64,000 bases of DNA from Candidatus Heimdallarchaeota archaeon (lineage in GTDB: Archaea; Asgardarchaeota; Heimdallarchaeia; Heimdallarchaeales; Heimdallarchaeaceae). The stretch lies in contig JAEOSZ010000055.1 in NCBI GenBank assembly GCA_016840095.1, positions 19,471-83,470 of the forward strand. Reading direction: 5' to 3'. The translations under genes and the position numbers were made by a program. This document shows positions 29,560 through 55,363 of the stretch, in pieces; positions within the stretch are counted from its first letter, which is position 1; the number at the start of each line of letters is the position of its first letter. The notes under the pieces are model-generated. The model was not told the DNA's origin, did not search any database, and saw only the letters and a program-made list of their open reading frames with translations.

Positions 29560-30789
29560 ATGTCAAAGACCCGTTCCACATTTTCAATCTTTGCTGGATT
29601 TACTCTATCAGTAGTGGGTGGAATGGTTTTTGACTTTGGTGGATTAGTTGCAGGAAGTGCTGCAACACTTTTACAATCTCTTTCTTCAGTTATTCCATGG
29701 ATCTTTCTAATTTATCCTTTACTTCTGACTGTTAGAGGAGATATTAATGGAGTTCTTACAGGAAAACTTGGAACTGCTCTTCATCTGGGAACTATCAAAC
29801 CAACTTTCAAGAATAATACTGAGAGGTTCATTCATTTGATTGTCCTTATGCTGATATTAACATTATATGATTCCATCCTTATTAGTATCGTTACGTCACT
29901 TCTTGGTTTCCTTCTAAAACTTAATTTGACCTTTCTTGATGTACTTAAGATATTCTCGATTACTTTTACAACTTTTGTATTTACAGCTGTTATTTCAATG
30001 GCTATTACTTTCTTTCTAACTTTCTTAATTTTCAGAAATAAAGGCGATCCAGATGTCTTAGCTTATCCAGTTACTTCTTCAATAAATGATATTCTAATTA
30101 CACTTATCTTTGCAGCTGTATGTTGGCTATATCGACCATGGAATTCAACTGTAAAACTGCACTATTTCATTGGAATTCCGATTATTGTTATTGTCATTGC
30201 TTTGTTCATATTCTTATTGGTGAAATATGGAAAGAATAAATATGTTAAATCAGGAATTTTTCAGACACTACCGGTACTTACAGTAACAAATTTAATTGCA
30301 GCTGGAACAGGATCTGTTCTAGCTTTATTTTCTACTATTCTTTCGTCAGTACCAATACTAATAGTGTTCTATCCTGCTATAATAAGTACTGTTGGAAGTC
30401 AGAGTTCAATTTTAGCTAATACTAGCACAACTAAACTACATCTTGGTACTATGAAACCATCATTAAGTTCACTAAAAACGCAAGAATTCTCTATTAGTTT
30501 ATCTGGAATTTTAACTGCTTCTCTAATCATCGTAACTATTATGAGTTTACTTGGAATAGCTATGTTTCCTGAAGGAATTACTTTCAGCCTTTATGGCTCA
30601 ATATTAGGTTTATTGATTTTTGCTAATTTCTTCTCTTTTTTCATAGTTGGTTTAATTGCTATTTCTGCAACTTTCATTACTTTTAGATTAGGAATGGATC
30701 CTGATAATCTAGTTAATCCTTTGCTAAGTTCAAGTGCTGATTTGATAACTACTAGTATTTTAGTTCTATTCTTCTTTCTACTTTTCTAA
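29560..30789 (+). CDS. MgtE-type magnesium transporter with two membrane repeats (SLC41-like)
   Basis: P-x6-G in both halves (YPLLLTVRGD; YPAIISTVGS), LHLGT twice, DPDVLAYPVTSSIND and DPDNLVNPLLSSSAD. Confidence 0.88.
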   Translation: MSKTRSTFSIFAGFTLSVVGGMVFDFGGLVAGSAATLLQSLSSVIPWIFLIYPLLLTVRGDINGVLTGKLGTALHLGTIKPTFKNNTERFIHLIVLMLILTLYDSILISIVTSLLGFLLKLNLTFLDVLKIFSITFTTFVFTAVISMAITFFLTFLIFRNKGDPDVLAYPVTSSINDILITLIFAAVCWLYRPWNSTVKLHYFIGIPIIVIVIALFIFLLVKYGKNKYVKSGIFQTLPVLTVTNLIAAGTGSVLALFSTILSSVPILIVFYPAIISTVGSQSSILANTSTTKLHLGTMKPSLSSLKTQEFSISLSGILTASLIIVTIMSLLGIAMFPEGITFSLYGSILGLLIFANFFSFFIVGLIAISATFITFRLGMDPDNLVNPLLSSSADLITTSILVLFFFLLF

Positions 30790-52256: not shown

Positions 52257-52883
52257 ATGAACGTTTACCATGTTGTAAGAAAAAGGCTTATGCCGATGAA
52301 GGAGCCTTACAAATTTCTCAACGGAGATGTCTATTTAGCTGTAACAACTACTCACATTTGGATTTGGTTAGGTAAGAAATCTTATGCAGATGACAAAGCT
52401 GTAGGTGCTTGGACAGCTAAAGTTGTTGAGGAAGATAACAAAGATCTAATTATTAAAACTGTCATGGAAGGAGATGAACCTGATGAATTCAAGAATTTAG
52501 TCGACTTTCAAGTAGTTGAAGGTGATACACCTGGTTTCTTAAAACATTTTGAGAAGAAAATCGATATTGATTATAAGCTTCTTCAAATTATCCAAAAAGC
52601 TGATGGAACAATTCAAACTAAGGAGATTCCAATCAAGTATAAGAATCTCAAATCCAATGATGCTTTCGTTATTGATGCTTATGACGAAATTTACGTCTGG
52701 ATAGGCAAGAAATCACAAGTTAAAGAGAAATATGAAGCAGGTAAAATTGCTAGAGCTCTTGACGTTGAAAGAAAGAGACGTCCAGTTGTTTTTACAATAG
52801 AAGAAGATCAAGAGCCAAAAAATTTCAAAGATCTTGTTGAAACCATAGCTAGAGAAGATAAGAAGCTTGAAAAGAAAAAATAA
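52257..52883 (+). CDS. Two-domain gelsolin (Asgard 2DGel-like actin regulator)
   Basis: Two repeats: FLNGDVYL..IWIWLGKKS..EGDEPDEF and LKSNDAFVIDAYDEIYVWIGKKS..EEDQEPKNF. Confidence 0.9.
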   Translation: MNVYHVVRKRLMPMKEPYKFLNGDVYLAVTTTHIWIWLGKKSYADDKAVGAWTAKVVEEDNKDLIIKTVMEGDEPDEFKNLVDFQVVEGDTPGFLKHFEKKIDIDYKLLQIIQKADGTIQTKEIPIKYKNLKSNDAFVIDAYDEIYVWIGKKSQVKEKYEAGKIARALDVERKRRPVVFTIEEDQEPKNFKDLVETIAREDKKLEKKK

Positions 52884-52963
52884 TTTTCTTCAATCTTCTT
52901 TTTATAATTTTTTACACTTTTTCGAGAAAGATTAAAATATCTTGATTTTTTCCTTTTGGAAGT

Positions 52964-53593
52964 ATGACTATAGAACCATCAACGGGGGATAGTCTAGATG
53001 TCAATAAGCTAACTAGAGACCAACAGTTGTTATTGCATACTATAGATTATCTAACAAAATGGGTAAAGGGGGGAGACCACTATCTTCAAACAGATAGCGA
53101 AAAAGTATGGGTAAAGGAACTTCCTCTTTGGGCTGTAATATATTACCAAATTGTTAAAGGATCTTATGAATCCTATGATTATGCTCCAACTTCGATTCAA
53201 TTTTTTGGTCGCAGTAGTTTTACTGTAAACTTATCTTATGAAGGGGTAGATGACATAGAAGATCTTAGAGAATTAGAAATTTTAGAAAAAATCCGTTTAA
53301 GTACATCACAACATGGATTTGTTACTGCTTACAGAATTACTGAATTGGGATTCAAGTTTCTTGAGTTGATTCCTGAGGATGTTCGAGAAGAAGTGCATAA
53401 CTTGTTCTACTGTGAACACTGTAAAACTCATCTTGATTTCTTTATGAATATGGGTGATCATCCTGATATTAAGATTGATTGTCCAGAATGCGATGTTTCA
53501 GACTTTGAACTTGATTTTCTAGAAAGCGAAGATGTTAGTTACGTTTCGAAACCCTACTTCCTACGTATTGCTAAAAAGCTGGTGAGAGATTAG
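52964..53593 (+). CDS. Uncharacterised winged-helix-like protein with Zn ribbon
   Basis: WVKELPL, YDYAP, EGVDDIEDLRE, AYRITELG (wing), CEHC...CPEC, EDVSYVSKPY. Confidence 0.75.
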   Translation: MTIEPSTGDSLDVNKLTRDQQLLLHTIDYLTKWVKGGDHYLQTDSEKVWVKELPLWAVIYYQIVKGSYESYDYAPTSIQFFGRSSFTVNLSYEGVDDIEDLRELEILEKIRLSTSQHGFVTAYRITELGFKFLELIPEDVREEVHNLFYCEHCKTHLDFFMNMGDHPDIKIDCPECDVSDFELDFLESEDVSYVSKPYFLRIAKKLVRD

Positions 53594-55363
53594 ATGAGTG
53601 TCAATTCAAGCAACATTAAAGATGAACTATCAGAAATACTTTTTATAAAGAATCCAAAGGTTTTGGTTATTGAGTGGCTTCCATTTGATTCAAATCAATT
53701 GAGAGAATTGAACAAAAAACTTGATATTGAAAAGGGAGCTCACAAAACATTGCTAACTGGAATTATTGATGAATCACCCGATGTACCAATCTTCATGTCT
53801 AAAGGCCAACACACAAAGGTTCTAGTTAAAGACTTCAAACTTGATAGTTATGTTAATCTTGAGGCAGTAATAGATATTCCTGAAGAAGAAGGAATAGAAC
53901 AAATTGAAGAAATGGCAATGTTCATTTCAAAATCAGGATTTGTTGTTTATTCTTTGGATTTACAAGAAGTAGAAGGTCAGAGTGGGTTTATTTCTTTAGA
54001 CAAAATTTCTCGTGTAGTAGCAGATTTATCACAAGATAGCTCGAGAGTTATAGATAGCTTACTAACAGAATTTCAGCGTAATTTCACTAAAATAATCTTT
54101 GGAAATCCCATGCATAGACCAAAAACTATGTGTTACATTGCTGAAGATATCAATATTCGTCATGAAAATATATCAGATTATTGTGATGGAGAAGACTGTG
54201 AAATTGAATTAAGCCAACTTATTGGTGAAGGATTCGAAACATTTGAAGAGAATAAAGAAATCTTCTTCAAAGGTACTAGAGGAACCATTTCTATTATTGA
54301 AAACTTTACTGAAGATTGCGAATATCAAGTAACCTTTTGGGGAATCCAACATGCAATTAGTCACTTTGTTGACAGTTTCATGTCTCGAATATGGGAGCTC
54401 TATGATCAATCTAATAGTATCAAACTTCTTGTTGATGAAGCTGTAAAAGGTAACACAGAAGCATTAAACAGCGTTCAAGAGCAAATTACTCTTCTGACAA
54501 GTACTATTAGTCTTGTAAGCCAAATCCAAGAATTCCTAAAAGACTCAACGTTTGATTTACTTCAAATCTATAAGGAAAATGGCATATCAAATTTGAAAGA
54601 TTTCTATGAGGTAGAAAAGGGATTGAATATAGCAAGAGATAGAGTTAAGGAAGCTAATAAGATCATTAATGGCTTATTAACAGAACTTGAAGGAATTAGA
54701 AATTACATAAGTACTCTATCGGAGTTTCAAATGAGAAATATGTCAAAAACTATGACTCGAAATACAAAAAGTATGAATCAAGTCCTACAAGCTAATACGA
54801 GAACAGGAGAAGCAATCGATATGATTGAGTTAATACTAGCAGGAAGTATCATTCTAGAGATTGTTGCGTTTGCTATAGGTGAAATAGGTTCAGATCAAAC
54901 AATCTTTAAAACAATAATTGAAGGAGGAACTTTAGTTAAGGAGCAAATAGTGACACTACTTCTTTTTTTGATAAGTATTTTTGCATGGGTTGGAATAGTA
55001 TTATACTTGCGTTGGAGCAAAAAGCGAATGGAGCGAAAAGCACTCAAAGATTTCGTAATAACCATGACTCTCAATCGAGACATCAATGTAGATATGATAG
55101 AAAACTATCTACTTGAAAAAGAGATACTTACAAAACATGTAGAATTTGATAAAGATAATACTATAGTAACTTTAGTCTTAGACATTAGTAAAGACCCAGA
55201 TTTGACAGAACTTGATGTTGAATATGTTAGTGTATCATACAATGAAACAAGTGCTTTATTATTGAGTATTGAAATAGAAACAGCTCAAGTAGAAACCGAT
55301 CAGAAAGAAATGCTTGAACTTATATTAAAGGATATGAAATTATCAGGTGTTATTGAGAACTAA
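53594..55363 (+). CDS. Uncharacterised protein: alpha/beta domain, long helices, 2 TM, small C-terminal domain (CorA-like topology)
   Basis: Starts on the base after the upstream TAG; GGTGA at 53581-53585; TMs ILAGSIILEIVAFAI and LLLFLISIFAWVGIVLYL; no GMN motif. Confidence 0.75.
   Translation: MSVNSSNIKDELSEILFIKNPKVLVIEWLPFDSNQLRELNKKLDIEKGAHKTLLTGIIDESPDVPIFMSKGQHTKVLVKDFKLDSYVNLEAVIDIPEEEGIEQIEEMAMFISKSGFVVYSLDLQEVEGQSGFISLDKISRVVADLSQDSSRVIDSLLTEFQRNFTKIIFGNPMHRPKTMCYIAEDINIRHENISDYCDGEDCEIELSQLIGEGFETFEENKEIFFKGTRGTISIIENFTEDCEYQVTFWGIQHAISHFVDSFMSRIWELYDQSNSIKLLVDEAVKGNTEALNSVQEQITLLTSTISLVSQIQEFLKDSTFDLLQIYKENGISNLKDFYEVEKGLNIARDRVKEANKIINGLLTELEGIRNYISTLSEFQMRNMSKTMTRNTKSMNQVLQANTRTGEAIDMIELILAGSIILEIVAFAIGEIGSDQTIFKTIIEGGTLVKEQIVTLLLFLISIFAWVGIVLYLRWSKKRMERKALKDFVITMTLNRDINVDMIENYLLEKEILTKHVEFDKDNTIVTLVLDISKDPDLTELDVEYVSVSYNETSALLLSIEIETAQVETDQKEMLELILKDMKLSGVIEN

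Follow-up and report, generated by a model that had tools for sequence, protein, structure and literature searches.

Gating of the CorA channel proceeds through its cytoplasmic domain and stalk. CorA, Mrs2 and ZntB belong to a family whose defining signature is a GxN filter between the two membrane helices (PMC6972854), and in a type III CRISPR system of Bacteroides fragilis a CorA-family protein acts as the effector (PMC10600005). Among winged-helix proteins, Panacea antitoxins neutralize membrane toxins (PMC8832971). Here these systems are compared with two adjacent genes, A and B, from a Heimdallarchaeaceae archaeon; "the window" denotes the whole stretch of 64,000 nucleotides that was analyzed.

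The A-B locus

A and B lie directly behind a two-domain gelsolin gene on the same strand, as a sequence-only reading of this DNA had reported; 80 bp separate gelsolin from A, and B follows A without a gap.

52257..52883, + strand: two-domain gelsolin (2DGel type; PF00626, two repeats, E 1e-21), a neighbor outside the A-B unit
52884..52963, + strand: 80-bp spacer with T-runs past the stop codon of gelsolin and a TATA-like segment rich in A and T (from sequence)
52964..53593, + strand: ORF A, 209 aa, PF27231 (MJ1567), by family HMM match
53411..53491, + strand: C4 zinc ribbon of A (C150, C153, C173, C176)
53525..53587, + strand: conserved tail of A, aa 188-208, with an EDVSY motif, predicted to dock along the N-terminal sheet and stalk of B
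53581..53596, + strand: coupled A/B junction, with a GGTGA ribosome-binding-like site 8 nt before the ATG of B; the TAG of A abuts in frame
53594..55363, + strand: ORF B, 589 aa, PF27230 (MJ1566_N), by family HMM match
54821..55003, + strand: two membrane helices of B, aa 410-428 and 452-470, from hydrophobicity; GxN is absent from their loop
55052..55342, + strand: beta-alpha domain at the C terminus of B (aa 487-583), lacking in CorA and in the short archaeal family members

The sequence-only reading had found no family name for either ORF. Both in fact carry one, PF27231 (MJ1567) for A and PF27230 (MJ1566_N) for B; these assignments come from newer precomputed annotation, and the local copies of Pfam and NCBIfam gave no significant match. 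The names refer to genes of Methanocaldococcus jannaschii. A and B are ordinary members of the two families, both of which are carried by the fused proteins described below, and the present B is a long form with a C-terminal domain that many archaeal copies of about 460-510 aa lack. Our literature search found no paper on the MJ1566/MJ1567 families or on the A-B pair, and the text of one structural survey does not mention the pair. The conserved motifs quoted in the earlier reading, one beginning with YDYAP and the other with NI[KR]DEL, were found in the order given.

The spacer at 52884..52963 may contain both the end of the gelsolin transcript and a separate start for A-B; a sigma-70 promoter scan of it scored no better than shuffled sequence. 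At the A/B junction, the spacing of the two frames is in phase in 13 of 82 locus rows (duplicates counted), so that the in-frame TAG is not a conserved read-through site or fusion intermediate, and ARAGORN found no Pyl or amber tRNA. An assembly error at this stop is likewise unsupported: a separately assembled 1637-bp contig from a public run, possibly of the source sample itself, contains the stop and is identical to 52731-54367. A stands directly before B in all 21 named loci long enough to judge, and the remaining loci examined, whether Asgard, archaeal or bacterial, show the same order, bar two truncated remnants.

Protein B and the CorA fold

The structural model of B (pLDDT 90) comprises an alpha/beta domain, three long helices, two membrane helices and a C-terminal domain, and the last of the long helices, of about 90 residues, runs continuously into the first membrane helix. 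All 40 Foldseek rows at E<1e-3 were CorA-family channels (CorA, ZntB, CmaX), with low whole-chain TM-scores to CorA (0.13-0.21 by query). VIA placed two CorA structures at the top (Z 14.4, rmsd 10.9 over 176; Z 13.2, rmsd 14.8 over 192) and aligned B with Mrs2 at Z 12.4 and rmsd 2.6 over 114; helical bundles in the same list reached Z 11-13, little below CorA and Mrs2. A sequence search of solved structures returned coiled-coil noise only. Foldseek and VIA together support the CorA topology that had been proposed for B. For the C-terminal domain, the top BFVD row was a TBP-like viral protein at a TM-score of 0.13, which serves as a lead only.

B resembles the CorA/ZntB/Mrs2 proteins (2-TM-GxN/MIT superfamily, PF01544) in its alpha/beta cytoplasmic domain, its stalk and its two membrane helices, and the whole CorA layout, including an unbroken stalk some 90 residues long, is kept across all three domains of life. 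It differs from them in lacking the filter, in being paired with, or fused to, a dedicated winged-helix protein, and in about 100 additional residues after the second membrane helix. The GxN motif occurs in the membrane-helix loop of none of 147 aligned sequences, and PF01544 matched neither B, nor ten relatives, nor any other protein of the genome. Given the missing filter, B probably does not select hydrated Mg2+ in the manner of CorA. Conservation in B centers on the cytoplasmic domain and the interface with A, away from the membrane helices, the first of which is weakly hydrophobic in many fused proteins.

The A-B pair does not replace CorA in genomes. Within Heimdallarchaeaceae, CorA is present in 3 of 14 A-B carriers and MgtE in 27 of 31 genomes; of the A-B carriers across Asgard archaea, about 19 of 31 have CorA, against 192 of 268 genomes overall. 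That A-B substitutes for CorA or MgtE was rejected on the lack of anti-correlation with either. Since carriers possess MgtE or CorA as often as other genomes do, A-B is not needed as the Mg2+ importer of the cell, and nothing in its occurrence points to a part in ion supply. A CorA-related membrane part serving outside Mg2+ uptake is also what the CRISPR effector of B. fragilis offers, and the conserved cytoplasmic-interface residues proposed to bind its signal are a further likeness to A-B (PMC10600005). The A-B pair differs from that effector in its N-terminal partner, and no CRISPR or signal-degrading genes adjoin it in any locus examined. We infer that A and B, as members of two catalogued but unstudied families, work in a CorA-like way without belonging to the 2-TM-GxN group.

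Protein A and the predicted complex

Protein A was modeled (pLDDT 91) as a winged helix with a C4 zinc ribbon, a beta-hairpin after the YDYAP motif and an extended tail at its end. It is strongly acidic, with 21 K+R against 39 D+E, which argues against DNA binding. The zinc ribbon is kept in many archaea and in five of seven fused bacterial proteins, and lost in all 18 named eukaryotic ones; the tail leads straight into B in the fused proteins.

The best structural match of A was 7yk3_D, a chain of a DarTG toxin-antitoxin complex (Z 10.7, rmsd 4.9 over 139; next row 9.1), which we take to be the C-terminal domain of DarG. Panacea clusters were among the matches in both Atlas searches (TM 0.50). 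In profile comparison, A matched Panacea with a probability of 91% in the archaeal set and 0.6% in the bacterial set, while a PadR control gave 71-85%; PF13274 (Panacea) matched none of 109 A sequences and nothing in the whole genome. A shares with the Panacea/SocA antitoxins and the DarG C-terminal domain the winged-helix fold, a similar aromatic-Pro turn and the position of a small acidic gene upstream of a membrane-protein gene. It differs from them in the inserted hairpin, the zinc ribbon, the tail, the absence of an HMM match, its constant partner and in having no link to mobile elements.

When A and B were modeled together, the complex reached an ipSAE of 0.68, whereas the highest of three controls scored 0.00. 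Fused homologues in the alignments may have raised the score of the A+B complex, and the two parts of a split gene are in general prone to pass. The model runs had at least 84% of contacts in common, and the partner pLDDT was at least 75. The mark used for calling a complex is attained by 58 of 80 solved pairs and by 2 of 110 mismatched ones. In the model, the hairpin (74-93) and the tail (188-208) of A lie on the sheet and stalk of B, and A is predicted to clamp onto the cytoplasmic domain of B. Conserved residues are enriched at this interface (A, 11 of 24, p 0.001; B, 13 of 46, p 0.002), in a test that is partly circular, the complex model having been built from the same alignments. Among the conserved interface residues are D136, D144, E105 and R175 of B and D72, E189 and Y193 of A. 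No solved complex of the A/B family was found. That A and B are two subunits of one complex, as had been suggested from the letters, agrees with this prediction and with their occurrence as halves of a single protist protein.

Distribution of split and fused forms

Among the 301 Asgard genomes searched, 42 encode B, and A is present in 32 of 268 Asgard genomes at least 85% complete. No A was detected in nine genomes from other families of the same order, nor in 15 from the largest other family of the class. Nearly all carriers have one copy per genome, with a GC content like that of the host, and the pair is dispensable. Apart from the in-frame copy of the window, none of the Asgard matches sat in an open frame of sufficient length for a fusion. 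Split pairs outside Asgard occur in Undinarchaeales and on two further archaeal contigs. One of the contigs bearing a split pair has 60% GC and encodes a SecY with full-length identities of 32-42% to the 21 Asgard families sampled, and is on that account read as belonging to a non-Asgard archaeon. The Atlas clusters of A and B are led by Thermoplasmatota and Thermoproteota.

The A profile retrieved 99 long proteins, all with both families, and the B profile 622 representatives at E up to 0.001. Among 175 two-part proteins fetched, 173 have A before B without overlap; single-sequence BLAST against fused proteins gave identities of 25-36% for A and 21-32% for B. Named eukaryotic carriers include Lagenidium, Phytophthora, Aphanomyces, Albugo, Corethron, Guillardia, Hemiselmis and Pycnococcus. 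All named eukaryotic matches fall in stramenopiles (oomycetes and diatoms), cryptophytes and green algae, and none in excavates, animals, fungi or land plants, named matches being a minority of the total. The protist protein uniting both parts, which the sequence-only reading had put forward, is real in oomycetes and green algae. Some eukaryotic copies carry additional ubiquitin-like or SprT-like domains.

Fused copies were also found on clearly bacterial contigs, from Ca. Wallbacteria, a contig named Myxococcota and several other bacteria. They are rare, occurring in 1 of 87 and 4 of 251 genomes of the two phyla searched.

Origin of the fused gene

Phylogeny was based mainly on a concatenated A+B tree of 32 rows under LG+C20, with which a quick tree of 59 rows agreed. 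All fused copies formed one clade (97/98), recovered also in the A-only and B-only trees. Its sister was a non-Asgard archaeal split pair (99/97), followed by two Asgard lineages (92/92). Within the fused clade, the eukaryote-type rows and the Myxococcota copy grouped together (100/100) with an unplaced fused protein, P0061, as their sister, and the other fused bacteria branched outside. The copy of the window grouped with other Heimdallarchaeia (100/98) and then with Thorarchaeia (98/96). Bacterial sampling was thin, and the root on short archaeal forms is uncertain, with long branches and an outgroup that does not fall on one side of a branch in the 32-row tree; the single fused clade does not hinge on rooting.

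In AU tests, a grouping of eukaryotes with Heimdallarchaeia was rejected (p-AU 3e-5), as was one with the nearest Asgard copies (p 0.003, less firm than its face value since the groups were chosen partly after the first trees had been seen). Treating all fused bacteria as one clade, the Myxococcota copy and P0061 included, was also rejected (p 2e-6), and a clade of four of the fused bacteria without the Myxococcota copy was allowed (p 0.40). Because eukaryotes as a clade without the Myxococcota copy were likewise allowed (p-AU 0.10), which lets the Myxococcota copy stand as sister to every eukaryotic one, this copy may be either a relative of the donor or a recipient. Myxococcota have been reported as donors of early eukaryotic genes (PMC13468126).

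On these trees, the split state would be older than the fused one, with a single fusion, placed most simply in a prokaryote, and protists would have received the fused gene from that lineage. The present Heimdallarchaeaceae copy is then a cousin and not the ancestor of the eukaryotic form. The window had been thought to hold a split ancestor of the eukaryotic protein; the eukaryotic homologues instead branch among fused bacterial copies, an outcome that the sequence-only reading had itself listed as refuting. The label of eukaryotic signature does not hold either, given that archaea outside Asgard have the pair and bacteria have fused copies.

Gelsolin neighborhood

Gelsolin precedes A-B in 9 of 13 Heimdallarchaeaceae loci, apparently of one genus throughout, in which about ten unrelated genes are equally syntenic with the pair. 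Four family members carry A-B away from gelsolin, the two being separated in two other genera, and gelsolin or a paralogue is present in 29 of 31 Heimdallarchaeaceae genomes. Conversely, in ten genomes of the genus, gelsolin is followed directly, 93-380 bp on, by the ABC ATPase gene, the 2.4-kb A-B segment being cleanly absent; the same site holds a deletion remnant in one further genome and a different gene in another. Presence and absence of A-B on the tree of the flanking genes required at least four changes within the genus. Outside Heimdallarchaeaceae, the neighbors differ in every lineage, and in the loci examined they are housekeeping genes. Gelsolin looks like a chance neighbor, held by local synteny at a variable site. 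The proposed link to the actin system, for which conserved adjacency across Asgard genomes had been named as a check, dissolves into synteny confined to one genus and broken both ways, by the empty sites and by the pairs elsewhere.

As the one exception outside the family, two genomes of one Thorarchaeia genus have a weakly gelsolin-like ORF divergent beside A-B (E 9e-5 and 6e-4 to a custom profile; no PF00626 match). In two genomes, a true CorA gene adjoins a paralogous gelsolin.

Proposed working of A-B

We favor, with a probability of about 0.58, a reading in which A and B constitute one accessory CorA-fold membrane complex, with A as an obligate partner that gates or assembles the pore of B; the pair is dispensable and would have been fused once and passed to early protists, with gelsolin a chance neighbor. 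B would be a divergent member of the CorA/Mrs2/ZntB fold, forming a ring in which the stalk and the first membrane helices line the pore, as the fold suggests. A, whose hairpin and tail are predicted to hold it on the cytoplasmic domain and stalk, would most likely act as a built-in gate or assembly subunit. The interface is where conserved acidic and polar residues of the two chains cluster, and these could make up a site that senses a cation or ligand and thereby opens the pore. Within genera, inheritance of the pair would be mostly vertical, with loss of both genes together, and early protists would have obtained it from the lineage, most likely prokaryotic, in which the one fusion occurred.

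A toxin-antitoxin or defense module, in which B is a depolarizing membrane pore held by A as an antitoxin of the Panacea/DarG C-terminal type and freed by stress or infection, the fused forms being self-inhibited sensors, would account for the DarTG match and the Panacea clusters, for an acidic A encoded upstream of and coupled to B, and for the patchy distribution. Precedents exist in Panacea antitoxins paired with membrane toxins (PMC8832971) and in CorA-family CRISPR effectors (PMC10600005). We consider it unlikely nonetheless, as the Panacea profile score is close to that of the PadR control, no match was found in plasmids, phages or PADLOC, and housekeeping neighbors, a constant partner, nearly always one copy, host-like GC and long retention in free-living protists all speak against a mobile defense system. 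Somewhat less probable again is a poreless scaffold or sensor, whose CorA-like stalk only anchors the A-bound domain and the C-terminal domain. Conservation in the cytoplasmic domain and A interface instead of the membrane helices, the missing filter motif and the additional domains of eukaryotic copies speak for it, whereas a complete CorA layout with its stalk of about 90 residues in all three domains of life is hard to explain for a mere anchor.

The idea of an Asgard-inherited eukaryotic-signature complex, fused in eukaryotes and working with actin and gelsolin, appears very improbable. Its eukaryotic homologues are real, most sampled split pairs are Asgard, two Asgard lineages stand next to the group of the fused clade and one non-Asgard archaeon (92/92), and both the gelsolin-like ORF of the two Thorarchaeia genomes and the CorA genes beside a paralogous gelsolin could be cited in its favor. 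Against these stand both AU rejections (p 3e-5 for Heimdallarchaeia, 0.003 for the nearest Asgard copies), the lack of matches in the related families searched (0/9 and 0/15), the A-B copies in non-Asgard archaea and bacteria, and a gelsolin adjacency restricted to one genus. New in the present analysis are the comparison of empty sites, which tells against a link to gelsolin, and the tree tests, which tell against an Asgard origin. The locus adds nothing to the Asgard actin toolkit; it is a clear case of an Asgard gene with eukaryotic homologues, lying beside a true signature gene, that is neither Asgard-specific nor the eukaryotic ancestor.

Beyond the accessory complex that we favor, a bolder extension can be put forward tentatively, as a doubtful prospect: A-B might represent a class of gated channels not described before, with the CorA fold and a winged-helix protein as obligate subunit, spanning three domains of life, which arose as two genes in archaea, was fused once, spread in bacteria, reached early eukaryotes from a Myxococcota-like donor and is conserved in many protists. 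Two families annotated without function, MJ1567 and MJ1566_N, gain a testable structure and a partner. Attention is also drawn to an unstudied protein of channel-like build, which is conserved in oomycetes, diatoms, cryptophytes and green algae and often listed in databases under the wrong name WDR35. Many members bear the label "WD repeat-containing protein 35", which is probably a transferred error; one gene model of 1507 aa combines true WDR35 domains with A+B.

The gelsolin-ABC junction

Comparison of loci in the genus revealed that the junction between the gelsolin gene and the ABC ATPase gene is a variable site. In addition to A-B, the gene pair encoding the winged-helix/Zn-ribbon protein A and the CorA-fold membrane protein B, it harbors:

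L111:431-1438, CrtC/lipocalin gene, in one genome
L001:3963-4520, CrtC fragment followed by A-B, in genome G115

The B protein of G115 shares 80-82% identity with that of another subclade versus 77% with that of the window's subclade, a relationship from which the flanking genes depart. This discordance hints at re-acquisition of A-B in G115.

On the other side of gelsolin, a gene is transcribed divergently from it:

window:51476-52144 (-), unnamed gene of 222 aa

This gene is conserved beside gelsolin throughout the genus (64-88% identity) and is kept there more faithfully than A-B. In two Thorarchaeia genomes, a proline-rich ORF of 314-318 aa lies divergently next to A-B (L017:403-1347; L018:3814-4770); its N-terminus is weakly gelsolin-like, with no PF00626 match in either ORF.

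CorA and MgtE genes

Two genomes of the genus carry a canonical CorA gene immediately upstream of the two-domain gelsolin paralogue:

G205 C166:241-1813, CorA-gelsolin locus
G277 C103:1290-2906, CorA-gelsolin locus

It does not occupy this position in three other CorA-bearing genomes, and in the sixth the two genes are about 6.5 kb apart. The following gene was found in 27 of the 31 Heimdallarchaeaceae genomes:

window about 29716-30768, gene with two MgtE-type membrane domains

Fused and atypical copies

The 1507-aa gene model P0296 combines WDR35 domains with A+B in one chain; such a model is probably the source of the label 'WD repeat-containing protein 35' carried by many members of the protein family. 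Extra domains occur in eukaryotic A+B proteins, as seen at L024:7292-10223 and in several matches to the A profile: one subgroup has gained a ubiquitin-like domain (PF27687), others a SprT-like domain (PF10263) or ubiquitin (PF00240).

In the complete genome of Ca. Heimdallarchaeum endolithica, an in-frame TAG interrupts B after 101 codons (L011:5605-7350). Two A-B remnants (L042:998-2065; L090:968-2242) retain the stalk and membrane part of B and have lost both A and the N-terminal domain of B predicted to bind it. One Asgard genome encodes two tandem A-like ORFs upstream of a short-form B (L093:75-1444). In a high-GC archaeon, A-B is inserted between secY and the next ribosomal-operon gene, on the strand opposite to this operon (L063:5446-7809).
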